Origin: a phage
Reading direction: 5' to 3' (one strand)
Sequence record: PX441839.1
DNA length: 64,000 nucleotides
Shown: positions 683 through 54,284 of the stretch, one piece after another
Layout of the letters: each line of letters opens with the position of its first letter
Numbering within the stretch: the stretch's first letter is position 1
Program-made: the position numbers and the translations under genes
Notes under the pieces: model-generated
What the model was told of the DNA's origin: nothing
Seen by the model: the letters and a program-made list of their open reading frames with translations, nothing else
Databases searched by the model: none

Positions 683-701
683 ATTATTTTCGTTTTAGGT
701 G

Positions 702-730
702 TTGACACCGAGACCGAATAAAAGCATAAT
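702..730 (+). promoter_or_regulatory. sigma70-type early promoter (class I, followed by leader hairpin)
   Basis: TTGACA, 17-bp spacer, CATAAT; the conserved leader cacatagggcgacacaacgtcgccc begins about 5 nt downstream. Confidence 0.6.
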
Positions 731-740
731 GCATCACATA

Positions 741-759
741 GGGCGACACAACGTCGCCC
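741..759 (+). promoter_or_regulatory. conserved 5' leader hairpin (GGGCGAC-acaac-GTCGCCC)
   Basis: 7-bp stem with 5-nt loop right after the -10; near-identical copies at 1118-1136 and 5267-5285, variants at 3515-3537, 7684-7710 and 8830-8860. Confidence 0.55.
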
Positions 760-782
760 ACTAACAAAGAGTGAGACAGTAA

Positions 783-1067
783 ATGATTACATTAAACCGC
801 GATGTTAACGAACAAGTTAAAAACTTTATCCGTCGCCCCCAGGAGTCAGGATACCCGCTAATCCTTGTAATGAAAGATGGTGGTGTGTTGTGTCATGAAT
901 GTGCCAAAAAAGAATTTAAAATGATCATTGCCGATACGCGAGAAGGTTGGAATACAGAATGGACAGCACTTGGAACAGAATTATTTTTAGAGGGTCCTGT
1001 TATTGAGTGTTCTCATTGCTACAAGGATATAGAGAGCGCATACGGCGATCCGAATTCAGAAGAATAA
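783..1067 (+). CDS. small early protein, Cys4 zinc-ribbon-like (94 aa)
   Basis: ORF with promoter, leader hairpin and RBS upstream; Cys pairs C-H-E-C and C-S-H-C. Confidence 0.55.
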   Translation: MITLNRDVNEQVKNFIRRPQESGYPLILVMKDGGVLCHECAKKEFKMIIADTREGWNTEWTALGTELFLEGPVIECSHCYKDIESAYGDPNSEE

Positions 1068-1079
1068 TAAAATAAAGTA

Positions 1080-1108
1080 TTGACAACATAAACAACTTGA
1101 ACGATAAT
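1080..1108 (+). promoter_or_regulatory. sigma70-type early promoter (class I)
   Basis: TTGACA, 17 bp, GATAAT, followed by the conserved leader hairpin at 1118-1136. Confidence 0.55.
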
Positions 1109-1162
1109 GTAACACATAGGGCGACACAACGTCGCCCACTAACAAACTAGTAAGGGTATACA

Positions 1163-1396
1163 ATGAATCTTAATGTTATTGGCGCAAATCAAACGGTTGT
1201 TACTTTTTCAGACAATACTCAATTATTCTATTCTTATAATACCCCAGTGGCTGCTTTTATCCCTGGCGAAGGATACATAGTGACCGCAACAAAGTATAGT
1301 CGTACCACGACACGACACATTAACAACTTTACAGGGGGTTTAGTTGATCGTGTTGAGTCCCAAACATTTTTTGATAATTTAGTAAAAACCGCTTGA
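1163..1396 (+). CDS. hypothetical early protein (77 aa)
   Basis: ORF with own promoter and AGGG RBS. Confidence 0.5.
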   Translation: MNLNVIGANQTVVTFSDNTQLFYSYNTPVAAFIPGEGYIVTATKYSRTTTRHINNFTGGLVDRVESQTFFDNLVKTA

Positions 1397-1430
1397 CGTT
1401 GGTTTATGCCTGGTACATAATACTAGGCAT
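1393..1430 (+). promoter_or_regulatory. sigma70-type early promoter (class II, -10 inside a covarying palindrome)
   Basis: TTGACG, 17 bp, CATAAT; inverted repeat atgcctggta / tactaggcat flanks the -10. Confidence 0.6.
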
Positions 1431-1468
1431 AGGCAAACGAAAGCAGACAACCAAACGAGGGTTACAAA

Positions 1469-1828
1469 ATGACTAACATGATCGCACTGACTGAAAAACG
1501 TAATGCACTGGAAAACATCCTGGCAAAAATCAAAGAGAAGCAAGCAGAAATCGACTCTTTTGAGTACGAGTCCAGCACGTCAGAATATGATGATTATTTG
1601 GACAGTGAAGGGGAAATCACCGTTGCGGGAATGACATTCTGGCCGTCAGATATCCTTAAGAATTGTGATCCTACTGCATACCGTTGCGGGAAAGTGGACT
1701 ATGATTCAAGTAAGGACCTGGATGACGTGGAAGAATACCAGGCGTTACAGGAAGAACTGGAAGAACTGGAAAACGAACGTGACGATCTGGAAAGTGAGAT
1801 CGAAGAACTGGAAGAAGGCGAAGAATAA
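1469..1828 (+). CDS. highly acidic small early protein (119 aa)
   Basis: ORF with class II promoter; C-terminal third is almost entirely Glu/Asp/Leu (EELEELENERDDLESEIEELEEGEE). Confidence 0.55.
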   Translation: MTNMIALTEKRNALENILAKIKEKQAEIDSFEYESSTSEYDDYLDSEGEITVAGMTFWPSDILKNCDPTAYRCGKVDYDSSKDLDDVEEYQALQEELEELENERDDLESEIEELEEGEE

Positions 1829-1833
1829 AAGTA

Positions 1834-1862
1834 TTGACAGGGGCGGTAAAACGCCCCATAAT
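1834..1862 (+). promoter_or_regulatory. sigma70-type early promoter (class III, GGGGCGG/CCGCCCC hairpin in spacer)
   Basis: TTGACA, spacer ggggcggtaaaacgccc, CATAAT; identical copy at 4097-4125. Confidence 0.6.
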
Positions 1863-1892
1863 GACAGGACCAAAACAAAGAGAGTAAAGAAG

Positions 1893-2102
1893 ATGATTAA
1901 CGAAAAACAAATCAATGATATCCGTGACGAAGCCTATCAAGTTGCGATCCGTGACGGTTCCCGCGCCGCCTTTATCTTTGTTACGGATCTTTATCCAGAA
2001 CAGGCAGAAAATATATTGATGCAAGTTTCTGTTTTACTGGAAGCAACAAAGCGCACAAAGTTAAGCAACGGGATCGATAAGTTGGCAAAAACTTTAAAAT
2101 AA
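1893..2102 (+). CDS. hypothetical early protein (69 aa)
   Basis: First ATG downstream of the class III promoter, in frame with listed ORF 1665..2102. Confidence 0.45.
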   Translation: MINEKQINDIRDEAYQVAIRDGSRAAFIFVTDLYPEQAENILMQVSVLLEATKRTKLSNGIDKLAKTLK

Positions 2103-2104
2103 TT

Positions 2105-2143
2105 GTTGACTTTGATTTATGCCGCTGTATAATGGGCGGCATA
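2105..2143 (+). promoter_or_regulatory. sigma70-type early promoter (class II)
   Basis: TTGACT, 17 bp, TATAAT; palindrome atgccgc / gcggcat flanks the -10. Confidence 0.55.
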
Positions 2144-2185
2144 GGTAAGAGAAACAAACACAAACCAAGTAAACAAGGGTGTATC

Positions 2186-2674
2186 ATGAAAATTGAAAAA
2201 TTCAAATCACTGTCTAACTATTCTTCCGACTTGATTGACGGCGTGATCCAAGCTTTTGGGAGTGAAGAATATTTCCTGGAGAGTTTTAGAGATGTTGCTC
2301 GATACGGCGGCGACAAAGGGATCGGTTTCATTTACTACACGGAAACGGACCAATTCTGGAAAGATTTAGGCCCACAAATTAAAGAGATGGTAGAAATAGA
2401 CGCCGAATCTTTCACCGGATCAAATGACTATTACACCGTGTGCGAAATGCTGGCAGGGTTCAAAATCTCAAAACAAAATGATCTTTGTGTTGACAAGTGG
2501 TTAGAGTTCCTATATGGTATCAGCCAGGACGAAGAAAATAGTTTAGATGCCCTTTGTGATGAGTGGGATCAAAATATGGCCCGTTGGGTGCTGGGGGTGT
2601 ATGCCGTTGAACGTGTATCCCAAGATCTGGAAAGTTTAATTGATAACGGGGATATTGACGAGGAAGATGTTTAA
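2186..2674 (+). CDS. hypothetical early protein (162 aa)
   Basis: ATG at 2186 downstream of promoter; the listed start at 2132 lies inside the -10 element. Confidence 0.5.
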   Translation: MKIEKFKSLSNYSSDLIDGVIQAFGSEEYFLESFRDVARYGGDKGIGFIYYTETDQFWKDLGPQIKEMVEIDAESFTGSNDYYTVCEMLAGFKISKQNDLCVDKWLEFLYGISQDEENSLDALCDEWDQNMARWVLGVYAVERVSQDLESLIDNGDIDEEDV

Positions 2675-2985
2675 TGCTAACGTGGATCGTGTTGGCTTTA
2701 TGCGGGGTGGCGGCGATCTTTTGTGTCGCCACACATAAAAAGTACCTTTACAAAAAGGCTGAAAAAGTGTTCGGATACTTTGAGTATGAATATGATGGGG
2801 AGGTTTCCACATCGCGGGACTATGGACCTATGCTTGAAATTGATATGGTGGGCGCTATGCGACACCGCCAGGAGTGTGGCGCACACATAACGTTTAGTCA
2901 TTTTGGAACAGAAGATGAGATTTTCGACATCATAGACAAACGAGAATATTTGCGCCAACAACAAAAAACACGCCGTAAGTTTTAA
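2674..2985 (+). CDS. hypothetical membrane-anchored early protein (103 aa)
   Basis: Start overlaps the upstream stop (TAATG); hydrophobic N-terminal segment. Confidence 0.45.
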   Translation: MLTWIVLALCGVAAIFCVATHKKYLYKKAEKVFGYFEYEYDGEVSTSRDYGPMLEIDMVGAMRHRQECGAHITFSHFGTEDEIFDIIDKREYLRQQQKTRRKF

Positions 2986-3007
2986 TTGAGTAGAGAGAGG
3001 GTTTAAG

Positions 3008-3148
3008 ATGATTGCAACTAATACTAACCGTGACAAAATCAGCCATAAGAACAAATTAAGCTATGGTGAAGCAAAGGAGCGGATCACAGTATCAAAGGCC
3101 AATAAGCAACAACGCCGCAAAACGCGCTATAGCTGGGACAGCTTATAA
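3008..3148 (+). CDS. small basic protein (46 aa), not in the ORF track
   Basis: ATG at 3008 after GAGAGGG RBS; Arg/Lys-rich C-terminus; terminator hairpin follows at 3188-3214. Confidence 0.3.
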   Translation: MIATNTNRDKISHKNKLSYGEAKERITVSKANKQQRRKTRYSWDSL

Positions 3149-3187
3149 AGAGGGGAGGATTGTACCCACACTGATTTAAAACCTTAC

Positions 3188-3214
3188 AGGGGCCTTTATA
3201 GGCCCCTTATTTTT
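3188..3214 (+). terminator. rho-independent terminator
   Basis: aggggcc-tttata-ggcccct followed by a T-run. Confidence 0.5.
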
Positions 3215-3230
3215 GATAAGAGGTATCAAC

Positions 3231-3458
3231 ATGCAGAACATTTTAGGTTTAACTGATTTTATCCGCGCCCTTAAGGGCCGATCGTTGGGTTTTTCTGCCG
3301 TCTATATGGTGCCGGAGGGTAAGACATACAGCCAAGCCGTTAATGGCCTTATAGCAACGGCGGCAAGGGAAAACGTGAAGATCTCCACAGGCCAGATCCT
3401 AGCAGTTGATCCCGCCACATTTGCCACCATAGCGGCGATCAAAGTTACCGTAAAATAA
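3231..3458 (+). CDS. hypothetical early protein (75 aa)
   Basis: ATG at 3231 after AAGAGG RBS. Confidence 0.45.
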   Translation: MQNILGLTDFIRALKGRSLGFSAVYMVPEGKTYSQAVNGLIATAARENVKISTGQILAVDPATFATIAAIKVTVK

Positions 3459-3481
3459 TTTAAAATATTTTGTTTTTGGGT

Positions 3482-3510
3482 GTTGACAGGGGAAAGGGAT
3501 TGCCCCATAA
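3482..3510 (+). promoter_or_regulatory. sigma70-type early promoter (class III + leader hairpin)
   Basis: TTGACA, 17 bp with gggg..cccc, CATAAT; degenerate leader hairpin at 3515-3537. Confidence 0.55.
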
Positions 3511-3574
3511 TACACCACATAGAGCGACACAACGTCGCAAATTAAAACCAACTAACTAAGAGTGAGACAGTAAA

Positions 3575-4093
3575 ATGGGAAGCCCAAACTTTAAAACTTC
3601 AAACGTAAGATTAAACCTTGCATCTTTCCCGTTCAATGATTACAATGATGATGAGGAGATTCAAGAGCAAAACTATGAAGACCACAGTTATTGGGTAGAA
3701 CAGCAATATGAAGCAATGAAAGCGGTTATCGATGAGATTCCTACCCCTGATTTTTGGGATATCCACATCGAAAGCGGCTATCATGAAGGATTCCAGGTAT
3801 ACATTGAAAGTAATTGCGGCGATGATTATCAGGATCAAGTGTTCCAAGATCTTTACCGTTACAATGAGGCTTGCTTGCCGTCAGGTTATCCTTTAAATAT
3901 GCAAGACTTACCTTACGCAAGAAAGGGATCTGTAAACATTACCCCTTTTAATTTGAAATATGCTATTGAAAACGAGTACAAGGCGATCCATAATAAGATT
4001 TTAGCAGCAGCAAAGGAGGCTGGGATCGGTGAAGTGTTCGGATCTTCCTGGTGCTCAAATGTAGGACCTATTGAAAGTAAACTGATTAAATAA
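3575..4093 (+). CDS. hypothetical early protein (172 aa)
   Basis: ORF with promoter and leader upstream; acidic N-terminal region. Confidence 0.55.
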   Translation: MGSPNFKTSNVRLNLASFPFNDYNDDEEIQEQNYEDHSYWVEQQYEAMKAVIDEIPTPDFWDIHIESGYHEGFQVYIESNCGDDYQDQVFQDLYRYNEACLPSGYPLNMQDLPYARKGSVNITPFNLKYAIENEYKAIHNKILAAAKEAGIGEVFGSSWCSNVGPIESKLIK

Positions 4094-4096
4094 ATG

Positions 4097-4125
4097 TTGA
4101 CAGGGGCGGTAAAACGCCCCATAAT
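4097..4125 (+). promoter_or_regulatory. sigma70-type early promoter (class III)
   Basis: Identical to the promoter at 1834-1862. Confidence 0.6.
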
Positions 4126-4156
4126 GACAAGACCAAAACAAAAAGAGAAAGAAACA

Positions 4157-4309
4157 ATGAAACACTATCTAGTTAATATACCTGGTGTTGCGGGACCGCT
4201 CAAAGTTTACGGGTACGACGAAAAGGACGCAAGAAAGCGCCTACGTGATCGGGAAGGGTACAGAAAACGCCTACCCAATGGCACAAAACTTTATTTAAAA
4301 ACAGCTTGA
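4157..4309 (+). CDS. small basic protein (50 aa)
   Basis: First ATG after the promoter; listed ORF 4094..4309 begins inside the promoter. Confidence 0.4.
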   Translation: MKHYLVNIPGVAGPLKVYGYDEKDARKRLRDREGYRKRLPNGTKLYLKTA

Positions 4310-4345
4310 CGTTAGGTTATGCCGCCCCTATAATGGACGGCATAG
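4306..4345 (+). promoter_or_regulatory. sigma70-type early promoter (class II)
   Basis: TTGACG, 17 bp, TATAAT; palindrome atgccgcc / ggacggcat around the -10. Confidence 0.55.
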
Positions 4346-4375
4346 GCAAACGAAAGAAAACTAAGGTGATTCATT

Positions 4376-4648
4376 ATGAAAAGTAAACTGTCAAGAGAAG
4401 AAATTAGTCAAGTGTTATCTTTCAACATGCAAGACTGGAAAGAAAACGCCGACATTTGCGAAGCTCAAGATCTTAACGAAGAATTAACAATTGACGAAAT
4501 AAGCATTGTGTGCTCACCTGATTTTTATGATGAGTTGCACGAAAAAGATGATCTTTTTAACGTCCTGGAGAATAATTTCATGGATACCGATTTATGTGTG
4601 TACAGTATCGATACTTTTATTCTTATCCATAACATATACAACAACTAA
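4376..4648 (+). CDS. hypothetical acidic early protein (90 aa)
   Basis: ORF with promoter and RBS. Confidence 0.5.
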   Translation: MKSKLSREEISQVLSFNMQDWKENADICEAQDLNEELTIDEISIVCSPDFYDELHEKDDLFNVLENNFMDTDLCVYSIDTFILIHNIYNN

Positions 4649-4664
4649 AGGAAAGGGCCGCATT

Positions 4665-4955
4665 ATGTTTGAAGTATTCGCCGGAATGTGTTTTTATGGT
4701 GCTATGGCATTGCGTCAATGTGAAGATTACACCGTTGAAGTGTATCATGATCCCTTATCTTGCGAGATCGTGGCGCAAGATTACCGACAGGATAAACGCT
4801 GGCTTAATCCTCAGTGTATCCCATCGCCGGAGGTTGAACCAATGCCAGAAGGTGAAGCCCTGGAAGGTGAGGAGATCCGCGCCGTTGTTAGCTATATGCT
4901 AGATAACTTAAACGCCGATCAGCTTGTTTCTATGTATGCAGAAACAGAAAAATAA
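4665..4955 (+). CDS. hypothetical early protein (96 aa)
   Basis: ATG at 4665 after AAAGGAAAGGG RBS, in frame with listed ORF 4506..4955. Confidence 0.45.
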   Translation: MFEVFAGMCFYGAMALRQCEDYTVEVYHDPLSCEIVAQDYRQDKRWLNPQCIPSPEVEPMPEGEALEGEEIRAVVSYMLDNLNADQLVSMYAETEK

Positions 4956-4958
4956 TTG

Positions 4959-4999
4959 TTGACGTTGGTTTATGCCGTCGCATATAATAGACGGCATAG
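4959..4999 (+). promoter_or_regulatory. sigma70-type early promoter (class II)
   Basis: TTGACG, 18 bp, TATAAT; palindrome atgccgtcg / cgacggcat around the -10. Confidence 0.55.
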
Positions 5000-5031
5000 G
5001 CAAACGAAACAAACCATAAAAGGGTTACAAA

Positions 5032-5223
5032 ATGAAATCATCTTTACTTTTTTGCACTGTAAACATCATCATTGGTAACGGTTGCGGATCTCATGAATTT
5101 ATTAAGGGCAAGCCTTACAGCCTTTCATCGCTGCAAGCTGATTTTCGTTTATTGCCAGGACAGATCCGCAAATACTTTCGCGCCCCGTATCCAAAAGGAT
5201 ATAAAACAAATTTAGCAAAATAA
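5032..5223 (+). CDS. hypothetical early protein (63 aa)
   Basis: ORF with promoter and RBS. Confidence 0.4.
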   Translation: MKSSLLFCTVNIIIGNGCGSHEFIKGKPYSLSSLQADFRLLPGQIRKYFRAPYPKGYKTNLAK

Positions 5224-5227
5224 AGTA

Positions 5228-5256
5228 TTGACAAGGGGCACAGATTACCCCATAAT
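5228..5256 (+). promoter_or_regulatory. sigma70-type early promoter (class III + leader hairpin)
   Basis: TTGACA, 17 bp with gggg..cccc, CATAAT; leader hairpin at 5267-5285. Confidence 0.55.
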
Positions 5257-5307
5257 GTAACACATAGGGCGACACAACGTCGCCCACTAACAAAAGAGAT
5301 AAACAAA

Positions 5308-5592
5308 ATGATCAAGGCAAACAACTTTTTCTTCCTGGCTAACGTAGCGGATCACATCGTGGCAGAATTTAGAAACGTGGATGCAACAGCATTTATAAAA
5401 ATGCGTCATGAAAAAGACGTTTCAACGGATCGCGTAGAAATGGAAGTTACCCGCCACGGCAAAGAGTTTAAAATCAAATATCTGATTATCGTAAATAATG
5501 CAACATTTAGCGAGGGAACCAGCGAACCGATCCCGGACAATATGATCCAGCAAGTGATCGCCGCCGTTGCTAACGGATCAATTTTACCTTAA
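5308..5592 (+). CDS. hypothetical early protein (94 aa)
   Basis: ORF with promoter and leader. Confidence 0.5.
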   Translation: MIKANNFFFLANVADHIVAEFRNVDATAFIKMRHEKDVSTDRVEMEVTRHGKEFKIKYLIIVNNATFSEGTSEPIPDNMIQQVIAAVANGSILP

Positions 5593-5599
5593 AAAGTTG

Positions 5600-5640
5600 T
5601 TGACGTTGGTTTATGTGGGGCGTATAATTCCCCACATAGA
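5600..5640 (+). promoter_or_regulatory. sigma70-type early promoter (class II)
   Basis: TTGACG, 17 bp, TATAAT; palindrome atgtggggcg / ccccacat around the -10. Confidence 0.55.
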
Positions 5641-5661
5641 CAAACGAAACGAGAGATTAAA

Positions 5662-5868
5662 ATGTACACCATGATCGCACTTGCAGTATACTTCCTTTCA
5701 TCTTGCATTTACATTATGTTGGCGCTTGCCTTCCCTGGTGAGTTGGTTTATAGTTTTATGGGCGTAGATCTTGTTTTATGGGCGGTCGCCACGCCACTGA
5801 TGATCGTTCCCGCCGTGATCATTTATTGGATTGAAGAAAAGATTACTGATTTGCTAAAAGGCTATTGA
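5662..5868 (+). CDS. small integral membrane protein (68 aa)
   Basis: ORF with two predicted hydrophobic helices. Confidence 0.45.
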   Translation: MYTMIALAVYFLSSCIYIMLALAFPGELVYSFMGVDLVLWAVATPLMIVPAVIIYWIEEKITDLLKGY

Positions 5869-5926
5869 CAAGGCAACCACAAACAAAGATAATAGCCTCA
5901 TTGAAAACAACTAGTAAGGATTTACG

Positions 5927-6079
5927 ATGTATAAGCTGTTAACCTGGGAACATGAGACAAGCCAACCGATTAGCCGTGACTTTTTCGATTTGTGCGCCGC
6001 TTACCGACTGGCAAAAGGCGGTTACTATAAAGCCCAAATCATTGATGAAAATAATGTTGTACTTTATGAGTTTAAATGA
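5927..6079 (+). CDS. small protein (50 aa), not in the ORF track
   Basis: ATG at 5927 after AAGGA RBS; followed by hairpin gcgccccgaaaggggcg at 6087-6103. Confidence 0.3.
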   Translation: MYKLLTWEHETSQPISRDFFDLCAAYRLAKGGYYKAQIIDENNVVLYEFK

Positions 6080-6133
6080 TTAACAAGCGCCCCGAAAGGG
6101 GCGATAATTACCACACAAAACAGGAGACAGTAA

Positions 6134-6376
6134 ATGAAAGTTCAAAATGTATTGATTTGTGAAGATTGCGCCTTGTACCTTAATACAGGTGAGCTTCCCG
6201 CTGATACCACACCAGAAGATGATCAGGACATCATCCACGGGGCGGAATATCTAGATATAACTTACAAATTTGGGAGTGTAGGCACTAGTTTAGGCTTTTC
6301 AATAAAACCGTGTGAATGTTGCGGATCTCGCCTGGCCGGAGATCGCTATGAATATGATAATCTTGGCTTAAAATAG
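6134..6376 (+). CDS. small zinc-ribbon protein (80 aa)
   Basis: CEDC ... CECCG Cys pairs; GGAGA RBS. Confidence 0.5.
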   Translation: MKVQNVLICEDCALYLNTGELPADTTPEDDQDIIHGAEYLDITYKFGSVGTSLGFSIKPCECCGSRLAGDRYEYDNLGLK

Positions 6377-6536
6377 TAGTTGACTACAACGAAAGAAAAG
6401 AATACTATGTATCACATGAAAGGCAAACAGCCTAAACCAACAAAGAGAGAAACAAAATGAGCGTAGTATTCTTAATTTCAGTTTTCGTAGCTATCGCCGC
6501 TTCAACCGCAATTTGTGTAAAATTAGGATGGTAAGA

Positions 6537-6932
6537 ATGGAAAGTGTAAAAGATACCCTGTTAAATGCTTTTTTGTCCGGCGCTACTGAGGCGTTATTGT
6601 TCGCAGAATCCGCAGAAGATGCAAACGGGGAGACAATCGAACATTTGAACGGTTACGAATTAAGCAATGCAAGCAAAGCACTGTTAAAACTGGAATCTGT
6701 TAAATTCTTAGATTTAGGAAACAACTTAATAGAAAAAGCTATTGACAGTAGCGGCGATTTATACGATTATACTCAAGCGGGGCGGGATTTTTGGTTTACT
6801 CGTCAAGGTCACGGCGTAGGATTCTGGGATCGGGGTCTTGGGGAAGTTGGGGACCAGCTAACAGAACTTTCAAAATGTTTCGGTGAGCGCTGGATCTCTT
6901 TGAATGAAAATAATTTTGTAGAGGTTGAATGA
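6537..6932 (+). CDS. hypothetical protein (about 131 aa; start uncertain)
   Basis: In frame with listed ORF 6513..6932; ATG at 6537 has an AGGA RBS. Confidence 0.45.
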   Translation: MESVKDTLLNAFLSGATEALLFAESAEDANGETIEHLNGYELSNASKALLKLESVKFLDLGNNLIEKAIDSSGDLYDYTQAGRDFWFTRQGHGVGFWDRGLGEVGDQLTELSKCFGERWISLNENNFVEVE

Positions 6933-7276
6933 TGGCTGAAAAATTCTCAATAACTCAAAAGACAATTTACACCATTAAAAGCAAACACGGCGTTATTGAG
7001 TGTGAAGGGATAGCAGGACTAGAAAAGCACGTAGAGGAAACATTAGGCGCTTTTGTTGACAACATGCACGGCAACCATACAGGACTAAGATCAAAAGATC
7101 GGATCAATGATTATGATTACCTGTTAGAGAATCGCCAGGACTTAGAAACAATTTTCGCCCTTATGGATGCCGTTAAGGATCTGAAAAATCCACCATCGCC
7201 GGATCACGATTGTGATGATTATTATTGTAACCGTTGCGGATCTGGATCGGCCATTGAATACGTAGGAAATAATTAA
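6929..7276 (+). CDS. hypothetical protein with C-terminal Cys cluster (115 aa)
   Basis: Start overlaps the upstream stop; CDDYYCNRCG motif. Confidence 0.5.
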   Translation: MMAEKFSITQKTIYTIKSKHGVIECEGIAGLEKHVEETLGAFVDNMHGNHTGLRSKDRINDYDYLLENRQDLETIFALMDAVKDLKNPPSPDHDCDDYYCNRCGSGSAIEYVGNN

Positions 7277-7278
7277 CA

Positions 7279-7500
7279 ATGCAAACTAAAAACCTGTTAG
7301 GAAAATCTGATTTTTTAAGAGCGCTCGCGCCTGGCGAATCGGCGGTATGGAACGTGCAAGGGAAAGATGTAGAAAAGGAAATGCGCCTGTTTACTGCTAC
7401 CGCTTGCCGCCTGGCAGTGACTATCACACAAAGGGCCGCTTTAATTGTTTTGGCTGATAACTTGCCCTTACATTGTGTAATCGTGACTAAGGTTAAGTGA
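7279..7500 (+). CDS. hypothetical protein (73 aa)
   Basis: Abuts the upstream gene. Confidence 0.45.
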   Translation: MQTKNLLGKSDFLRALAPGESAVWNVQGKDVEKEMRLFTATACRLAVTITQRAALIVLADNLPLHCVIVTKVK

Positions 7501-7511
7501 ATGACAATAAC

Positions 7512-7555
7512 AGGCCCAAATAGTGAACGTATGGCGCTATAAGGGCCTTTTTGGT
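7512..7555 (+). terminator. rho-independent terminator
   Basis: aggccc ... gggcct stem followed by ttttt. Confidence 0.45.
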
Positions 7556-7646
7556 AAGAGGTAAGGCAATCAGGCACTAAAGCCTAAAAATTCAATACAG
7601 ACCCTTACAGGGCCTCACATCAAAAATAAAAATCATCTTAAAAGTG

Positions 7647-7675
7647 TTGACTCTTAAATTACTTTTCGGTATCTT
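7647..7675 (+). promoter_or_regulatory. putative sigma70-type promoter with variant leader hairpin
   Basis: TTGACT, 17 bp, TATCTT; leader variant gggcggcaatggtgccaaggccc at 7684-7710. Confidence 0.4.
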
Positions 7676-7728
7676 TTACCACGTAGGGCGGCAATGGTGC
7701 CAAGGCCCACAACTTAGGAGCCAGTAAG

Positions 7729-7983
7729 ATGACAACTTTCAAACACGTAATTTCTGTAAATACTGCTATCCTTGGCGGCGTGGAACGTGATAAAGCTTTT
7801 TATTCAAAGTATATCGGTGATTCATGTTTTAACTACTGGGGCATGAAGATGTCAGAAGTTCGCCGGATACTGGGATTCGGTAATACTGGCCGTAAAGTTA
7901 TTTCGGGCGATATCGCCAGAACTTTAAACGTAGGCTATGACATCGCCAAGAAAATTCTTTCCGATGTAGAAAAATCACTCTAA
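7729..7983 (+). CDS. hypothetical protein (84 aa)
   Basis: ORF with RBS; hairpin ggccccgaaaggggcc follows at 7991-8006. Confidence 0.5.
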   Translation: MTTFKHVISVNTAILGGVERDKAFYSKYIGDSCFNYWGMKMSEVRRILGFGNTGRKVISGDIARTLNVGYDIAKKILSDVEKSL

Positions 7984-8184
7984 TCATTAAGGCCCCGAAA
8001 GGGGCCAACATGCAAAGGGAATAGTAGTGATTTACTTTAAAAATGTTGAAACGGGCCGATTCTACCGCTTTAAAAATAGCCGTGTTTTGTTCCACATTGC
8101 TGGATTGTGGCGCATCAGCGACACATACAGACCCGCCGATCTTACGGGTTATCCTTTCATAGCTGTAAATATGGGACCATCATT

Positions 8185-8376
8185 ATGACCACAGAAAGCG
8201 ACATCAGACAAGCCCTGGCCGCTATGCGTTATCACCATAGATTAAAGAGCAGTGATCCAGGTTACGCCGGATCAACCTTTGAGAGGGATACCATAGAGGG
8301 GATCGCCACACTTAAGAACCTTATGGACCGTATGAGGGACAGCAACAGATCCGACTTTTTAGGGGAGGAGATTTAA
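8185..8376 (+). CDS. hypothetical protein (about 63 aa; start uncertain)
   Basis: Internal ATG of listed ORF 8107..8376. Confidence 0.35.
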   Translation: MTTESDIRQALAAMRYHHRLKSSDPGYAGSTFERDTIEGIATLKNLMDRMRDSNRSDFLGEEI

Positions 8377-8404
8377 TTTATCGGACCATAACCACTGGAT
8401 GTAA

Positions 8405-8440
8405 AAACAGGTTGATTTGGTCGGCCTGTTTTGTTATCTT
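8405..8440 (+). terminator. rho-independent terminator
   Basis: aacagg ... cctgtt stem followed by ttttgtt. Confidence 0.45.
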
Positions 8441-8795
8441 ATTTAGACGGCGGGCACCTGGGGACAGGGGGAGACAAACACCGGACCTGCCTGTTATTCA
8501 GGTTGACTTACCGGACCTGGGCCACGTTCTGCAAATGAAAATGGTTATCATTCCCAATAAAATCAAATACATACTTTCAAACCGTTGTCAAATTTATTTC
8601 ATACTACTGTATAAATATACATGGCCCTAAAACGCCCTGAATCGCGTTTTAAGCCGTTTTACCCTGAATCCTTACCCTACATCATTAAAAAATAGATCTC
8701 GCGAAATCGGACTTTCGCACTTTTTGCCCTTGCAAACATGAAAATTTTATGCTAGATGAGTTGGTTGGAATTGACAAAACTTTACAATCCCCCTA

Positions 8796-8824
8796 TTGAC
8801 GGCAAGCCCAGAAAAGCCTATTAT
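8796..8824 (+). promoter_or_regulatory. sigma70-type promoter with variant leader hairpin
   Basis: TTGACG, 17 bp, TATTAT, then cacatagggcggcaatggtgcgacggccc. Confidence 0.45.
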
Positions 8825-8876
8825 TTATCACATAGGGCGGCAATGGTGCGACGGCCCACAAAGAGGAGACCGTAAA

Positions 8877-9020
8877 ATGAACCTGACTAACTTTAACCGC
8901 TACTACATCCGCGACGAACAAGCTAACGCTTTCGGTTATGACCGCACCGCTGAAGCCGCTGAAAAGCAACATAAAATTTTCATCCGTTGGATTGCAGACT
9001 ATAAAAAGGCCCGCGCTTAA
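8877..9020 (+). CDS. small protein (47 aa)
   Basis: ATG at 8877 after AAGAGGAG RBS; the listed start at 8796 lies inside the promoter. Confidence 0.4.
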   Translation: MNLTNFNRYYIRDEQANAFGYDRTAEAAEKQHKIFIRWIADYKKARA

Positions 9021-9265
9021 TGTATCGCCTTTTTAAAATCAACCTTCCATTGTGGGCCGCTTTAGCGGTCCCCATTGCCTTTTCTGGTGATGCCTTAAAC
9101 AATTGGATTCTTTCCGCTGTACTTGGACCGGATCAAATAGTCGCAACATGCTTAAATGTTTTAAGTGCTACACTGGCAACTTCCCGCCTTGCCTACCGTG
9201 GCAAATCAATAAACCGTTATGATCTGGCGCTATCATTACCCGCTCTAATAACCTGCCTTAACTAA
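9020..9265 (+). CDS. hypothetical hydrophobic protein (81 aa)
   Basis: Start overlaps the upstream stop; last gene of the plus-strand early block. Confidence 0.4.
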   Translation: MYRLFKINLPLWAALAVPIAFSGDALNNWILSAVLGPDQIVATCLNVLSATLATSRLAYRGKSINRYDLALSLPALITCLN

Positions 9266-9272
9266 AAGACAC

Positions 9273-9299
9273 CCGCCCCACCCGGCGGGCTTTTCTTTT
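9273..9299 (+). terminator. rho-independent terminator ending the plus-strand early block
   Basis: cccgcc-ccaccc-ggcggg stem followed by cttttctttt. Confidence 0.55.
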
Positions 9300-9597
9300 G
9301 TCCCAAACGTGGCAAGCCAGAACATCCCGATCCGGTATCGGTCCTACTCCCCCAGCACATCCCCTTATCACCTCACCTGTTAAAATCAACTCATAATTTT
9401 ATTCACTTTAAGATGCATAATTGAATAAACGGCCCCAGGGTATAACGGCAAGGGTAAACAATTGCGACCAGTGTGGAGCGTTACAGCGAGTTTTAGACCC
9501 TATTGACTTCTATTTGCAAACGTGTATCAAGCCATAACTAACTAAAATCACCTTTTATTTACATAACTTGACACTACCTATTCACTTATCTGCATAT

Positions 9598-9616
9598 GAG
9601 AATGATTATCATTAAC
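9598..9616. repeat. near-palindromic AT-rich box gagAATGATTATCATTaac (copy 1 of 3-5)
   Basis: Further copies at 10005-10018 and 10201-10214, degenerate copies at 8540-8552 and 9927-9939; resembles the Fur-box consensus GATAATGATAATCATTATC. Confidence 0.45.
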
Positions 9617-9675
9617 TAAATCATACACTTACCACATACAAGTAAACAAATCAATAATAAATAAAAATTGCCTTT

Positions 9676-9860
9676 CACGTTCCCACGGATCAAGGGAGGG
9701 CGCGCCGGAGGCGCGACCTATAGAAAACAGGTAACGAATCAACCCCCGTTGCTAACTCGCAACGGTTTTTGCTTACGTTCCCACGGTCAAGGGATGACCG
9801 CTTATTAGCTACGCTAACCGCTAACATCCTTTAACCGCTTTAACCTGTTTTCTATAGGTC
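9676..9860 (+). repeat. composite structured element: direct repeats, 16-bp inverted repeat and internal terminator
   Basis: Direct repeats (c/t)acgttcccacgg(a)tcaaggga at 9676-9697 and 9774-9794; inverted repeat cctatagaaaacaggt (9717-9732) / acctgttttctatagg (9843-9858); internal hairpin ccgttgc-taactc-gcaacgg + ttttt at 9745-9770. Confidence 0.45.
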
Positions 9861-10512
9861 TTTTTTATGTGTAAATTCCATAAAGTCAAGGGCTTTTATC
9901 AAGTAATTTTCATAATTTTACTGAATGAGAATGCTTATCTTTTGCATATGTAGGCGTAAATTAGCGTAAACAGGCGGACCTGTAAGGACCTGTTAGGGCC
10001 TATAGGATGATTATCATTGCGTATAAAGTAATCAATTAGGGGGTAGTAATGCCTACTTTTGCCTTATTTTGCCTGACCAGAAACGGTCTTCTCTGTCAAC
10101 CAAAAGATAAATTTTTAGCACAAAATGTAAGTGGCCCAAATGAGAACTATTCTCAAAGTAGAGTAATTCCCAAATGTTAATGAGTCTCACCTCAATTGTG
10201 GAATGATTATCATTAAGTCCAGTGTTGGCGGGACCTGGAGCAGGACGGGTAAGCCAGTGCGTATAAGGTATTTTATGTTAAATGGTCAAAAAGTGGGCGT
10301 AGGCACAGTCTCACCGATGAGTCAAGTAATAAACTGTAAATGTGGGACAAAAGCCCGTAATTGTTGGGGAAAGAATCAAACATTTTCGAAGGTAGGGGCG
10401 GCTACCGCCAGCGACAACGGGCAAGCGGGGAAAGGGTAAGTTATTGTTTTTACTGGATATTTGGGAAAGATCGGCCCCATATGTGAGGGGTAACTCAGGG
10501 GTGCCTGGCACC

Positions 10513-11030
10513 TATATCCAAACTCTGGTGAAATATATCCAAACTCTGACCAAAAATACAAGGCTCTCTTAGCCGAAGACAAAGGAAAGATAAATGGGTA
10601 TCTCCAGCTAAACAGGGGAGACTCTTTAGGCACTAACCTTGTGGGATATTTTGGGGAGAAATGCTCTGGAGACCCTACCGTACTTGACGATCTAAAATTT
10701 TGGGGGGAGGGCACTACAGGATATTTTCTGGTCTGACTCCATAAGACCCCCTACCCACTTTTGGACATCTAAAAATTTGGCAGGGAGGTATTTCTGATAT
10801 TTATGACTGAGTGATATTTGAACAGAGGGGACTCTTTAGACACCCACTTGTTTTGGGGAGAAGGTATAATATTATTTGGGAGGGGGTATAACAGAATTGA
10901 TAACAGATTTGGAAACAGGAAGGGACAGGGTTGACTCTTTAGGTATAGAAGGCAAAACTGATGGGTTGACAGATTGACCAACTGACGGGACTCTTTAGGC
11001 AAGAAAGCAGGAGAGCCTCTTTAGGCCCTC
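10513..11030. repeat. iteron-like cluster of degenerate short repeats
   Basis: tatatccaaactctg twice (10513-10527, 10534-10548); gactctttagg five times (10620, 10830, 10933, 10989, 11015 variant); ttttggggaga-type G-runs at least five times. Confidence 0.45.
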
Positions 11031-11052
11031 CTTTTTTGGGATCACTGGAACA

Positions 11053-11334
11053 TTAGAGGTAATCCTCTAATAGCTCCAGCCAGAAGCCACTTTGGTCCTT
11101 TCTGGTGTGACTCTGTGGCCCATTATCGTGGATGAGATAGATGTTTCCATCAACCCCTTCGAAGATTCTCATTTTGGCATCCACGTACAAATACCTCAGT
11201 TCTTTCTGGCTGTACCCATATGTGGGATAATTCTGGGATGTCATGCGACCTCCCACAAAAGGGTGAGGGATATGGTTATGGCTATGACAGCAAGCAGCAC
11301 AAGCCATTTGGTTATGTACTCCTTGTGGGTCCAC
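11053..11334 (-). CDS. hypothetical protein (93 aa), last gene of the minus-strand block
   Basis: Six-frame ORF; Cys/His-rich N-terminus. Confidence 0.45.
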   Translation of the reverse strand: MDPQGVHNQMACAACCHSHNHIPHPFVGGRMTSQNYPTYGYSQKELRYLYVDAKMRIFEGVDGNIYLIHDNGPQSHTRKDQSGFWLELLEDYL

Positions 11335-11434
11335 AGCAGGTATTCAAAGTCATCTTCGTGATTGTGGAACATAACTACACCCCCTGTTTATAGAAGTAAT
11401 TGTTTTCATTATCCCTACCTTCCCAACTATGGCC

Positions 11435-11650
11435 TTACAGTCCACTACCTGCCTCATTAAAGGCATCCTCAATTGCCTGTTCCAGAGAAAGTCCGTAGCC
11501 AAACACCCCGTGGGTACGGGAGTGTACCTGAACAAGGTCTTTGTCACCACAATCTAAGCGATCAAAGATAAACTCTTGATTATTAACAGTTACTTTGTAG
11601 GTTGATAGTACCTTAAACATTCTTTTCCTCCGTCTCAGACAGTATTTCAA
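11435..11650 (-). CDS. hypothetical protein (71 aa)
   Basis: Six-frame ORF. Confidence 0.4.
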   Translation of the reverse strand: MKYCLRRRKRMFKVLSTYKVTVNNQEFIFDRLDCGDKDLVQVHSRTHGVFGYGLSLEQAIEDAFNEAGSGL

Positions 11651-11837
11651 ACTTAGCTACACCCAGGACAACAACATGACCCAGTGACAATACGCCTGTC
11701 CAGTCTGTCCCGTTGCGTTTCTTACGGGTTCCTTCCAGATCGCAGAACCCGTTCTTAAATTCCGTTGCTTCAAAAATCTCCCCCTTAGGGAATACAGACT
11801 TGAAGTCGGAGATTACATTGACACATTTCAGTTTCAT
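11613..11837 (-). CDS. hypothetical protein (74 aa)
   Basis: Six-frame ORF. Confidence 0.4.
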   Translation of the reverse strand: MKLKCVNVISDFKSVFPKGEIFEATEFKNGFCDLEGTRKKRNGTDWTGVLSLGHVVVLGVAKFEILSETEEKNV

Positions 11838-52138: not shown

Positions 52139-52173
52139 TCTTAATACATAGCCCGTAAGGAATTGCGGGATTG

Positions 52174-52249
52174 CCGATTTAGCTCAGTTGGTAGAGCGCT
52201 TCACTTGTAATGATGATGTCGCAGGTTCGAGTCCTGCAATCGGCACCAG
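52174..52249 (+). tRNA. tRNA-Thr (anticodon UGU)
   Basis: Manual cloverleaf: acceptor gccgatt/aatcggc, D-arm gctc-agttggta-gagc, T-arm gcagg-ttcgagt-cctgc, CCA encoded; one U-U mismatch in the anticodon stem. Confidence 0.7.
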
Positions 52250-52254
52250 ATAAG

Positions 52255-52328
52255 GCCCAATAGCTCACTGGTGAGAGCCAACCCCTCATAAGGGTTAGGG
52301 CGGGGATCGTAACCCCGGTGGGCCACCA
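52255..52328 (+). tRNA. tRNA-Met (anticodon CAU; initiator, elongator or Ile-lysidine not distinguished)
   Basis: Acceptor ggcccaa/gtgggcc, anticodon arm aaccc-ctcataa-gggtt, CCA encoded. Confidence 0.75.
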
Positions 52329-52347
52329 ACCAAAGAGAGAATTTAGC

Positions 52348-52426
52348 GCGGGTGTATCTCATCCGTCTTCTAAACGGACGTTAACCGAGTAATTGGAGTA
52401 TGGGGGTTCGAATCCCTCCACCCGCG
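52348..52426 (+). tRNA. atypical tRNA-like gene with anticodon-type hairpin UCU (Arg?)
   Basis: Canonical T-arm ggggg-ttcgaat-ccctc and acceptor gcgggtg/cacccgc, but no D-arm, a 23-nt extra segment, no CCA, and the acceptor extends to a perfect 16-bp stem (52339-52354 / 52419-52434). Confidence 0.4.
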
Positions 52427-52450
52427 CTAAATTCTTTTGAGGTGTAAAAA

Positions 52451-52966
52451 TTGCTAAACTTGAAAAATCAAAATATAGATAAAGGCACGGGATATTTATA
52501 CGTGTACGATCCAAGTCACCCAATGGCAAATAAGTCTGGAAAGGTTTATGTTCACAGGTATGTTGCAGAGACGGGGTTTGGTATAAAACTAACACCTGAC
52601 CTGATAGTTCACCACAAGGATGAGAATAAGCTAAACAACGAGCTAACAAATCTCGAAGTTATGACTTATTCTGAACATGCCCGTCACCACCACGGGGCGG
52701 ATTTTGTAGAATGTGTATGCAAGACCTGTGGCAATGTAACTTTGAGGAGGCCCTCGGAAGTTGTATCATTTTGTTCACACAAGTGCTCAACAACATTCAG
52801 AAGGAAATTTGAAATCTCTCCTCAAGAGTTGCAGGATTTGGTTTGTAACTACCCAGTTAGTGTTATTGCAAAGATGTTTGGGGTTAGTGATACAGCAATA
52901 CACAAGAAATGTAAAACCCTAGGGATTAAAAAGATGCCGAAAGGATTCTTTTTAAGACTCCCTTGA
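52451..52966 (+). CDS. HNH homing endonuclease
   Basis: YVHRYVAE ... IVHHKDENKLNNELTNLEVMTYSEHARHH is a classic HNH motif; C-terminal Cys cluster and HTH-like region. Confidence 0.7.
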   Translation: MLNLKNQNIDKGTGYLYVYDPSHPMANKSGKVYVHRYVAETGFGIKLTPDLIVHHKDENKLNNELTNLEVMTYSEHARHHHGADFVECVCKTCGNVTLRRPSEVVSFCSHKCSTTFRRKFEISPQELQDLVCNYPVSVIAKMFGVSDTAIHKKCKTLGIKKMPKGFFLRLP

Positions 52967-52998
52967 CATAGGTAATTGATCCTGATAAGATAATTACA

Positions 52999-53397
52999 TT
53001 GTTTCATTTCGGGATCGACAATATGGCAAAAGCTGAGATCGTAACCCGTAAGCGTGGACGGCCTTCGAAAGAAGAAAGCACAGCCATTGCTACTGAAAAG
53101 GCAATTCTTGAATATCGCCTTAAAGTGGCGATGTTATTACCTACCGCTGTTGATACCCTTAAAGGTCTGTTAACGTCAGGCTCTGAAAAAGTTAAAGAGG
53201 GTACTGCAAAATTCCTGATCAATGAGGCTAAAGAGGTGTTTAACATCTACGTCGCAGAAGATAATCAGGACAGTGAAGCAGGTGGTACAGTATCTGCAAA
53301 CTCACAGACCCACGCTGGATCGTCTGATGAGATTAAAAACATTATGCCTCTTACTACGGAAATCCGTGAGTACAAGATGGCAGAAGGTGAAGATTAA
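52999..53397 (+). CDS. hypothetical protein with AT-hook-like RKRGRPSK (about 125-132 aa)
   Basis: Six-frame ORF; terminator follows. Confidence 0.45.
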   Translation: MFHFGIDNMAKAEIVTRKRGRPSKEESTAIATEKAILEYRLKVAMLLPTAVDTLKGLLTSGSEKVKEGTAKFLINEAKEVFNIYVAEDNQDSEAGGTVSANSQTHAGSSDEIKNIMPLTTEIREYKMAEGED

Positions 53398-53428
53398 GAC
53401 CCTTCGGGGTCTTTGAGTTTTCTTTTGA
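53398..53428 (+). terminator. rho-independent terminator
   Basis: gaccc-ttcg-gggtc followed by tttgagttttctttt. Confidence 0.5.
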
Positions 53429-53457
53429 CGATTATTTTCGTACAAAAGAGAATTTAA

Positions 53458-53544
53458 GCCAGGTTATACCGTAGGGGTAGCGGAGGAGACTGTAAATCTC
53501 TGGTCATTGCGACTCGGGTGGTTCGACGCCATCACCTGGCACCA
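53458..53544 (+). tRNA. tRNA-Tyr (anticodon GUA), type II
   Basis: Acceptor gccaggt/acctggc, anticodon arm ggaga-ctgtaaa-tctct, long variable arm, CCA encoded. Confidence 0.7.
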
Positions 53545-53549
53545 AATAT

Positions 53550-53639
53550 GGAGAGTTGGCAGAGCGGCTGAATGCACCTGACTTGAAATCAGGCGACCGT
53601 TAACTCGGTCCGTGGGTTCAAATCCTACGCTCTCCGCCA
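53550..53639 (+). tRNA. tRNA-Ser (anticodon UGA), type II
   Basis: Tracks E. coli tRNA-Ser: ggagagt-tg-gcagagcggctgaatgc ... cctga-cttgaaa-tcagg ... gtggg-ttcaaat-cctac ... gctctcc-g-cca. Confidence 0.85.
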
Positions 53640-53720
53640 AATATCGCCCCTTATATAAAAGAACACCTGCGCGGCTGGAAAAACCCACTCAACAGTTCTT
53701 GAAAAGGGGCAACAATTTAC

Positions 53721-53798
53721 GGATCATTAGCTACAATTGGTTAGAGCGGCTCACTGTTAATGAGACGGTTCGTGGTTCAAGTCCACGATGATCCGCCA
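53721..53798 (+). tRNA. tRNA-Asn (anticodon GUU)
   Basis: Acceptor ggatcat/atgatcc, anticodon loop ctgttaa, T-arm cgtgg-ttcaagt-ccacg, CCA encoded. Confidence 0.8.
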
Positions 53799-53805
53799 AA
53801 CAATA

Positions 53806-53950: not shown

Positions 53951-53960
53951 CACAATAAGA

Positions 53961-54036: not shown

Positions 54037-54043
54037 TTTCTGA

Positions 54044-54119: not shown

Positions 54120-54124
54120 AATAC

Positions 54125-54201: not shown

Positions 54202-54204
54202 AAT

Positions 54205-54279: not shown

Positions 54280-54284
54280 AATAA

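Follow-up and report, generated by a model that had tools for sequence, protein, structure and literature searches.

In the stretch of DNA analyzed here (the window: 64,000 nt, sequence record PX441839.1), which comes from a virulent myovirus of the subfamily Vequintavirinae, the 1.75 kb between positions 9300 and 11050 (hereafter the zone) are one conserved non-coding module rather than spacer DNA, and this module is probably an undescribed control or replication hub. It contains a structured element at 9677-9860, with a fold that is supported by covariation and conserved across genera, and a set of palindromes whose resemblance to the boxes bound by the Fur protein of enterobacteria is quantitative in two independent Escherichia coli test regions. 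The original prediction, made from the sequence alone, had described the stretch 9676-9860 as a module of repeats with an internal terminator and did not foresee that this module is such an element.

Comparison with related phage genomes, which had been proposed as a check, clearly did not bring up unrelated sequence at this place. The closest public relative of the window is Salmonella phage SSBI34 (88-93% identity), and the Certrevirus phages (phiTE, CB7, CR3, CR8, CR9, P7_Pc, KaOmega, F1M1E and others) match it at ~78%. We found the module at the same genomic position in Certrevirus, in the SSBI34 lineage, in Serratia phage ChuuTotoro and in rV5-type Vequintavirus, and it is present also in the phi92-like phages PD06 and FKP3 of the subfamily Stephanstirmvirinae. 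All the Certrevirus relatives have a mostly unannotated zone of ~1.5 kb in the same place, to which the left 500 nt of the window zone align over their full length at ~78% identity, while the rest of the zone matches the relatives block by block, the conserved blocks keeping a constant order; megablast aligns just ~10% of a query that includes neighbouring coding DNA.

The homologous rV5 locus is a 2.6-kb gene-free stretch between ORF163 and ORF164, marked on the published genome map as a "non-coding" box without open reading frames (ORFs) (Kropinski et al. 2013, PMC3606486), and a change in GC skew at this locus was ascribed to the orientation of transcription (PMC3606486). Beyond this label, the zone is unmentioned in the searchable literature, which describes no element, repeat or function there. 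The rV5 locus is inverted relative to the window in the public record; once brought into the orientation of the window, it shows the structured element, then iterons, Fur-like boxes and a G-rich field, which is the order of the window, the G-rich field carrying CTCTTCAGG and GATATTTG repeats and the block GTGCGCATAA..GGTATTATGTTAAAT being equal to window 10257-10285. It is striking that the non-coding motifs are conserved in this way when a flanking protein of the window and its rV5 counterpart share only ~40% identity. As for the earlier description of the zone as the convergence of two early gene blocks, the genes do converge in the window, and it is only the + strand block that looks early, from its 15 near-consensus sigma-70 promoters (TTGACA-N17-CATAAT/TATAAT, window 700-8800). 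In ChuuTotoro and PD06, the two phages examined for this, the genes flanking the zone are co-directional, so the zone is not intrinsically a convergence point.

The consensus fold of the element was derived from 15 distinct Certrevirus-type copies and comprises 50 pairs (helices in Table 1), 10 of which are changed on both sides in a compensatory manner. With these partners 98.5% of cells are paired, compared to ~40% when the partners are slid by 1-3 columns, and none of 500 shuffles matched the observed values. Within the Certrevirus-type copies, covariation supports P1 over its 18 bp, P2 and P3, and hairpins A, B and P4 are invariant. Support for hairpins that are invariant within this group comes from the comparison between genera, where hairpin B changes from GCGCC/GGCGC to GCGAC/GTCGC in rV5 and the stem of hairpin A, though unrelated in sequence, is still 5-6 bp long and closes a 9-nt loop. 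The arms of P1 differ in sequence in each lineage (GACCTATAGAAAACAGGT in the window, GACATAATATAAAAGCAG in rV5, GACAAAGGAAAATAGAG in ChuuTotoro, GGCTAATAATAACGCA in PD06 and GCTAATAATACCGCA in FKP3) and are always perfectly paired over 15-18 bp.

A covariance model (R1) built solely from the Certrevirus-type copies matched ChuuTotoro (E = 5e-10), five Vequintavirus loci (E ~1e-9) and PD06 (E = 7e-4), the same architecture recurs when the copies of the other genera are folded, and the element is predicted to fold much more stably than shuffled controls (z of about -7 to -8). Scans of public collections found the element in contigs of this phage group only. The Rfam 15 covariance models gave no match at E<=1 in window 8500-11800 and none on either strand of the rV5, PD06 and ChuuTotoro zones; the sole match at E<=1 in the loci of these three phages, Clostridiales-3 (E = 0.19, far below the gathering score), lies outside the zone.

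All the repeats of the original prediction are present at their stated places, and they are specific to the zone. The 21-bp direct repeats announced for this module were recovered as ACGTTCCCACGG(A)TCAAGGGA at 9677 and 9775. The announced inverted repeat exists as the arms of P1, but it measures 18 bp and not 16. The supposed internal terminator at 9746-9765 is a hairpin followed by a T-run in the window, but in most relatives the T-run is replaced by GATTGTG; since the T-run is missing there, and the hairpin itself is conserved by covariation, we regard it as helix P3 of the element rather than as a conserved terminator. Each lineage has a second copy of its own hairpin-A sequence (at 9775 in the window, downstream of P1 in rV5), which suggests that both copies meet the same partner.

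Other observations concern the element and its surroundings. Positions 9803-9842 are a 40-nt insertion with three RACCGCT repeats, common to phiTE and CB7, partial in SSBI34 and in a single metagenomic relative and missing from the remaining Certrevirus phages, a patchy distribution that does not track overall similarity. In relatives, a small hairpin is found 5' of the AAAGTCAAG motif, its stem varying in sequence and keeping its complementarity. A likeness of the direct repeat (GTTCCC...GGGAT.ACCG) to type I-E repeats of clustered regularly interspaced short palindromic repeats (CRISPR) was dropped without a formal test, because the repeat is invariant across phages of hosts with different CRISPR types and because the corresponding hairpin of rV5, whose host has type I-E, has an unrelated sequence. 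A mimic of the ToxI antitoxin (pseudo-ToxI; phiTE is a relative) was rejected too: the homologous phiTE locus has no ToxI-like tandem 36-nt repeats, and the escape locus of phiTE lies elsewhere.

The palindromes around the element were found as had been predicted, with three near-identical copies and several degenerate ones: AATGATTATCATT is exact at 9601 and 10202, carries one mismatch at 10006 and is degenerate at 9930, 10142 and 10176, and the whole window holds 16 sites at <=2 mismatches versus 3.6 expected. Compared to the 19-bp Fur consensus GATAATGATAATCATTATC, a 7-1-7 palindrome (PMC7157518, PMC3145626), the box at 9598-9616 agrees at 16/19 positions on the + strand, as stated earlier from the letters, and at 17/19 on the - strand; no other site in the 64 kb comes within 3 mismatches of this consensus (0.04 expected). 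PD06 carries a near-canonical Fur box as well (AAATGATAATCATTATCA, 17/19), and the consensus of the phage boxes is AATGAGAAT-N-ATTCTCAT.

A position weight matrix (PWM) built from 45 distinct phage boxes only was then scanned on two 50-kb regions of E. coli K-12. In the region 600000-649999, ranks 1 and 2 fell in the fepB-entC, rank 4 in the fepD-entS and rank 5 in the fepA-fes intergenic region, and rank 1 in the region 150000-199999 lies 54 nt upstream of fhuA; the promoters of all these loci are classical Fur-regulated promoters. Rank 2 in the latter region, ATTGAGAATCATTCTGAAT (19.3 bits, L035 39582-39600), lies in the map-tff/rpsB intergenic region, upstream of tff/rpsB. Applied to the window, the PWM placed 5 of its 9 matches in the zone (2.8% of the sequence) and two more within 2.2 kb upstream.

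Fur-box-like sites stand inside the distal early block of the window, at 7106-7124 (12.5 bits) and 8534-8552 (19.7 bits), and FKP3 and ChuuTotoro have additional boxes in the last few kb of their early block. The first ~730 nt of the FKP3 record (L027 9975-10702) hold a 500-bp direct duplication in which the perfectly palindromic box AATGAGAATGATTCTCATT occurs twice (29 bits, the highest score seen for a box in any phage); this duplication could be either a real tandem repeat or an untrimmed assembly overlap.

The order of the boxes is kept across genera, with a first box just ahead of the AT-rich stretch and the element, a second beyond the element, and then a cluster of three to five that adjoins the conserved block at 10257. 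The cluster at 10139-10214 is the counterpart of the five-box cluster of Certrevirus and has equivalents in rV5, ChuuTotoro, PD06 and FKP3; CGTAAACAGGCGGACC, which comes after box A2, is homologous to the rV5 iteron GTRAACAGT; and the segment 9976-10018, with the tandem repeat and box A3, is not common to SSBI34. Among the functions that had been offered for the zone, a cluster of regulator sites is the best supported, because of the Fur-box likeness in the two E. coli regions and because of the box order kept across genera; an origin is plausible and a packaging site unlikely, as discussed below. With an E. coli Fur sequence as a query, no Fur homologue was found to be encoded in the window; given the Fur-like boxes, host Fur would thus be the economical candidate for the protein that binds them. 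The hosts of these phages belong to Escherichia, Salmonella, Cronobacter, Klebsiella, Enterobacter, Pectobacterium and Serratia, and each of these genera has Fur.

The phage boxes resemble the Fur boxes of enterobacteria in palindrome length, AT-richness and consensus, their PWM recovers host sites, and host Fur promoters have several clustered sites just as the phage array does. They differ from host Fur boxes in their setting, that is a gene-free zone of a virulent phage with no recognisable strong promoter, and their commonest half-site is GAGAAT, compared to GATAAT in Fur boxes. One could therefore imagine that they are a Fur decoy only, soaking up Fur while phage DNA is being amplified and de-repressing host iron uptake to the benefit of iron-dependent phage enzymes, with the other elements of the zone being unrelated. 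Each genome has five to nine Fur-like boxes, in a region poor in promoters, and there is an analogy with site clusters that titrate a regulator, such as E. coli datA, which is also gene-free and has a copy-number-scaled effect as proposed for the phage array; datA, however, titrates DnaA, a different regulator, and for the phage array titration is wholly hypothetical. Boxes that hold fixed positions relative to other conserved blocks across genera are not required by a mere sponge, which would also leave the structured element and the other repeats unexplained, so we consider a decoy alone to be quite improbable.

The reading that we tentatively prefer, while still rating it as somewhat short of probable, is that of a Fur-gated cis-acting hub, used either as an origin or for non-coding transcription through the structured element. 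Such a hub would consist of an array of five to seven operators for host Fur (one at 9598, then the cluster 10140-10215), of the ~185-nt structured element, which comes just after the most AT-rich stretch, and of a G-rich field of short same-strand repeats (10450-11030), where the right-hand repeats would probably bind further factors. In iron-replete cells, Fur-Fe2+ would occupy the boxes, and this occupancy may gate the AT-rich stretch and the element, by acting either on non-coding transcription or on DNA opening. The element, as a transcript or as an unwound single strand, could then work locally as a regulatory RNA, as a primer or as an origin structure. In this way one of the early steps of the phage, most probably the onset of DNA replication, would be tied to the iron state of the host, and once its genome is amplified the box array might draw Fur off host promoters. 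A bolder version, which we find rather doubtful, is that of a dedicated iron-sensing module of virulent rV5-like and phi92-like phages, whose Fur operators control a new structured RNA or origin structure that times or scales phage replication to the iron status of the host, the element being a new RNA family and the amplified boxes reprogramming the Fur regulon.

Several observations weigh against a Fur-gated hub. The seeds of the PWM were chosen by a palindromic pattern that is already Fur-box-like. No strong sigma-70 promoter overlaps the boxes in any genus, so that classical Fur repression is not demonstrated; in Certrevirus, TTGACA-N19-CATAAT precedes box A1, with a spacer that is long for a promoter, and CATAAT has degenerated to CATATG in the window, which makes promoter activity there doubtful. 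Pairing in the element is almost purely Watson-Crick, with very few G-U pairs, and neither these pairs nor the folding informs on the active strand: the - strand folds better in 14/14 sequences and shuffled controls do likewise, A-C and G-U exceptions are balanced, and base composition explains the strand asymmetry. In PD06, where the flanking genes are co-directional, the zone is flanked on either side by positive GC skew and shows just a local dip, so there is no replication-type, genome-scale switch. No initiator gene was identified, the flanking ORFs encoding small hypothetical proteins and no systematic domain search having been made. Finally, the zone sits where two gene blocks converge in the Vequintavirinae, an uncommon place for an origin if genes run in the direction of the replication forks.

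Scans with a CB7-type early-promoter consensus and with relaxed sigma-70 settings, on both strands of eight phages, found nothing consistent and missed the TTGACA at 9568, and the promoter-poor zone contrasts with the adjoining promoter-dense early block. These results bear on a second explanation, which we rate as rather unlikely: the zone may be a non-coding RNA locus with no replication role, where one or more structured RNAs, either the element or a longer transcript ending at 11009-11038, act in trans on targets of the host or the phage and the Fur boxes confer an iron response, as for a Fur-controlled small RNA. Compensatory changes in a multi-helix junction and lineage-specific hairpin insertions are typical of RNA evolution, more small hairpins with complementary changes are found downstream of the element, the zone is bracketed by terminators with T-runs on the + strand, and box A1 of Certrevirus is placed as a Fur operator would be relative to TTGACA-N19-CATAAT. 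Such a locus nevertheless lacks a convincing promoter on either strand in any genus, the P1 T-run is missing outside this lineage, the segment 10263-10592 has no consensus fold and only weak structure (-7.6 kcal/mol), G-U pairs are nearly absent, and the many short same-strand repeats and iterons look more like protein-binding sites in DNA.

A replication origin is plausible on account of the iteron-like arrays, the AT-rich stretch 9636-9675 and the structured hairpins. This stretch exceeds the 99th percentile of AT content in window 40-mers (75%), and Certrevirus has an A/T run ahead of its box cluster. When an iteron array is taken as >=3-4 repeats, the window has box C five times, GATATTT five times and box A five to seven times, and in rV5 nine GTRAACAGT iterons, all oriented alike, separate the element from the boxes. 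GC skew switches locally from negative to positive at the element, and GATC is not enriched in the zone (5 observed versus 9.9 expected). It could then be that the origin uses a phage-encoded initiator, with the boxes and/or the same-strand repeats as its iterons, the likeness to Fur boxes being coincidental and the element being a structure for priming or loading on single-stranded DNA. The clustered and irregularly spaced repeats that adjoin AT-rich DNA, the nine rV5 iterons, the local skew switch and the long stems, whose perfect Watson-Crick pairing in every genus is what DNA hairpins should show, fit this idea, which we hold to be unlikely all the same: in two E. coli regions the best matches of the phage PWM are at genuine Fur promoters, an outcome that chance would hardly produce, no initiator gene was identified (within the limit given above), and no genome-scale skew switch is seen (PD06; rV5, PMC3606486).

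The right-hand part of the zone is the iteron-like field that had been placed at 10513-11030 with a repeat occurring twice, and this repeat is indeed present, as a tandem of TATATCCAAACTCTG at 10513 and 10534. The motif gactctttagg had been counted five times; three copies of GACTCTTTAGG are exact (10620, 10933 and 10989) and the remaining two carry one mismatch (10830 and 11015). Eight matches to this family were found in the window versus 1.06 expected, 5 of them in the zone, and TTTTGGGG has 3 copies in the zone, within the G-rich field at 10453-10830, and 0 elsewhere in the window. The family-wide consensus of box C is CTCTTYAGG; this motif and GATATTT are conserved across genera, and the motifs of the G-rich field recur in Certrevirus and rV5. 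In phiTE and CB7 only, a free-standing HNH endonuclease gene lies inside the zone (phiTE_097, locus L001 5459-5959; CB7_143, locus L007 4463-4948), interrupting the G-rich repeat field, with the GATATTTTCTGG block on one side and the CTAAAAATTTTGGCGGGAGGG block on the other.

The original prediction had also considered a packaging or recombination site. A packaging site or terminal repeat is unlikely, because relatives are circularly permuted, the terminase is far away and the record ends found in the zone look like assembly breaks, and we give very little credence to the zone being a pac site or the physical ends of the genome. What could suggest it is the repeat-rich non-coding DNA itself, together with the ends of public records: in 12 of the 49 Vequintavirinae and Stephanstirmvirinae records, the gene next to the zone is <=4 kb from a record end (~3 expected), and the records of SSBI34 and Cronobacter phage PBES 02 end inside the zone. 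However, phiTE, CB7 and PVP-SE1 are reported to be circularly permuted and terminally redundant (PMC3475682, PMC9769974), and the terminase gene of SSBI34 is ~45 kb from the start of its record (PMC8879037), while its zone, at 139.5-141 kb, spans the record ends. Breakpoints vary among records and have no common motif, and several follow phi92 gene numbering. The ends of the PBES 02 and SSBI34 records are typical assembly breaks, one at the arms of P1 and the other on a repeated 13-mer, and genome termini at the zone were rejected as artefacts of assembly or of numbering convention.

The PBES 02 record (KT353109, L014/L015) ends with ...GACCAATAGAAAACAGG and restarts with CCTGTTTTCTATTGGTC, which are the two arms of P1, and is without ~70-110 nt of the interior of the element, probably an assembly error at the inverted repeat. 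The SSBI34 record (MZ520832, L004/L005) ends and starts on the same 13-mer, GACTCTTTAGGCA, and is without ~90 nt that the window has at 10843-10932, between two copies of box C; this gap is either an assembly collapse at the repeat or a genuine deletion. The part of the excess of record ends that is not due to phi92 numbering may come from assemblies breaking in this zone rich in repeats and hairpins.

Like iteron- or transcription-primed origins (lambda ori; T4 oriF/oriG; ColE1), the zone has repeated motifs by an AT-rich stretch, hairpins and, downstream, a G-rich non-template strand of the kind that favours persistent RNA-DNA hybrids; unlike them, it has no replication-type skew switch, no demonstrated promoter and no adjacent initiator gene identified (within the limit already stated), and it lies at a convergent junction in the Vequintavirinae. 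The element is similar in architecture to single-strand initiation signals (the M13/fd minus-strand origin, sso, G4 oric), which are stable, orientation-specific stem-loops of ~150-200 nt, pairing being kept above sequence and the stems being nearly all Watson-Crick in the element. Those signals belong to single-stranded or rolling-circle replicons, unlike the 140-kb double-stranded DNA myovirus considered here. Like GOLLD and ROOL (Rfam), large structured RNAs of phages and prophages, the element is phage-borne, non-coding, multi-helix and conserved by covariation, but it has no Rfam match, its covariation-supported part is only ~185 nt long and the rest of the zone is without a consensus fold.

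Altogether, a blank "non-coding" box is turned into a defined set of parts, including a structured element with a clear covariation-supported fold that is absent from Rfam. The zone also explains errors in public assemblies, one record being without the interior of the element and another apparently collapsed at a repeat. If the boxes are bound by Fur, this would be, within the searchable literature, the first virulent phage wired into the iron regulon of its host through a gene-free DNA array. The rV5-like and phi92-like phages are among the coliphages with the broadest host range and are used in phage therapy and biocontrol; to our knowledge, nothing has been reported on where their replication starts or on how they sense host physiology. 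In gut and plant hosts iron is normally limiting, and how well a therapeutic phage works would therefore depend directly on any switch that responds to Fur.

Table 1. Features of the zone and its borders (window coordinates)
Feature	Position	Strand	Remarks
Intrinsic terminator ending the + block	9272-9298	+	GC hairpin 9272-9289, then T-run; scores on the - strand also
Conserved non-coding blocks	9300-9565		include GCATAATTGAATAA, TTACAGCGNGTTTTAGACCCTATTGACTTCTAT.TGCAAACGTGTATCA; ~78% identity to Certrevirus, no indels
Conserved TTGACA	9568-9573	+	-35-like hexamer
Box A1	9598-9616		GAGAATGATTATCATTAAC; best Fur-box-like palindrome; PWM 26.8 bits; orthologous box in all relatives
Most AT-rich 40-mer of the zone	9636-9675		82.5% AT; candidate unwinding region, between box A1 and the element
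Structured element	9677-9860		multi-helix fold, covariation
Hairpin A	9678-9684/9694-9700		9-nt loop
Hairpin B	9702-9706/9710-9714		
P1	9715-9732/9843-9860		18 bp, 100% complementary
P2	9733-9742/9769-9779		
P3	9747-9752/9759-9764		
Second copy of hairpin-A sequence	9775-9795		
P4	9784-9789/9795-9800		
Insertion in the element	9803-9842		lineage-specific
Invariant motif	9881-9889	+	AAAGTCAAG
Box A2	9927-9939		GAGAATGCTTATC; then TTATCT..GCATA and CGTAAACAGGCGGACC
Box A3	10003-10018		abuts 10-bp tandem repeat GGACCTGTAA x2.6 (9976-10001)
Fur-box-like cluster A4-A6	10139-10214		cores 10142, 10176, 10199
Conserved block	10257-10285		GTGCGTATAAGGTATTTTATGTTAAATGG; adjoins the box cluster in Certrevirus, ChuuTotoro and rV5
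G-rich field	10453-10830	+	
GATATTT x5	10456, 10645, 10720, 10796, 10813		
Tandem 21-mer	10513-10554		TATATCCAAACTCTG..; copies at 10513 and 10534
~42-nt unit, two copies	10671-10711, 10745-10788		
Box C	10620, 10830, 10933, 10989, 11015	+	GACTCTTTAGG; all on one strand
Hairpin from two box C copies	11009-11038	+	followed by T6; just before the stop codon of ORF 11053-11334

On its left, the zone is bounded by the + strand block, whose final ORF is 9020-9265 and whose terminator hairpin at 9272-9289 is kept with its T-run in 7 Certrevirus relatives. On its right, it is bounded by the - strand block, which ends with ORF 11053-11334; the hairpin at 11009-11038 receives a terminator score on the - strand, yet its strong T-run is on the + strand. 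The core TTACAGCGNGTTTTAGACC of the blocks at 9300-9565 is present also in PD06, and this region has no codon periodicity.

The zone had been said to hold no credible ORF, and we agree, since no ORF in it has a coding signature; when it is translated and compared to relatives, matches occur in all six frames. The best candidate, ORF 9421-9537, which carries a hypothetical-protein annotation in some relatives, was rejected: it has a TTG start and no Shine-Dalgarno sequence, its substitutions are equal at the three codon positions, and a stop codon is found in one relative. For ORF 10049-10180 there is a plausible ribosome-binding site, yet in SSBI34 a deletion has removed the start of this ORF. 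The frames of ORF 10203-10439 and of the ATG at 10275 are not maintained from one lineage to the next, the ORF not being conserved in SSBI34, and the block at 10257-10285 was discarded as coding DNA because its frame is broken by indels between lineages.

A tRNA scan found none in the zone and only a distant cluster at 52-54 kb, made of ten tRNA genes on the + strand (Thr, Met, Tyr, Ser, Asn, Asp, Ile, Pro, Gln and Gly; window 52173-54361). Most of the promoters at 700-8800 have an A-rich stretch upstream and a conserved CACATAGG/GCATAGG near the presumed transcription start, and several have GC-rich palindromes within their spacer.

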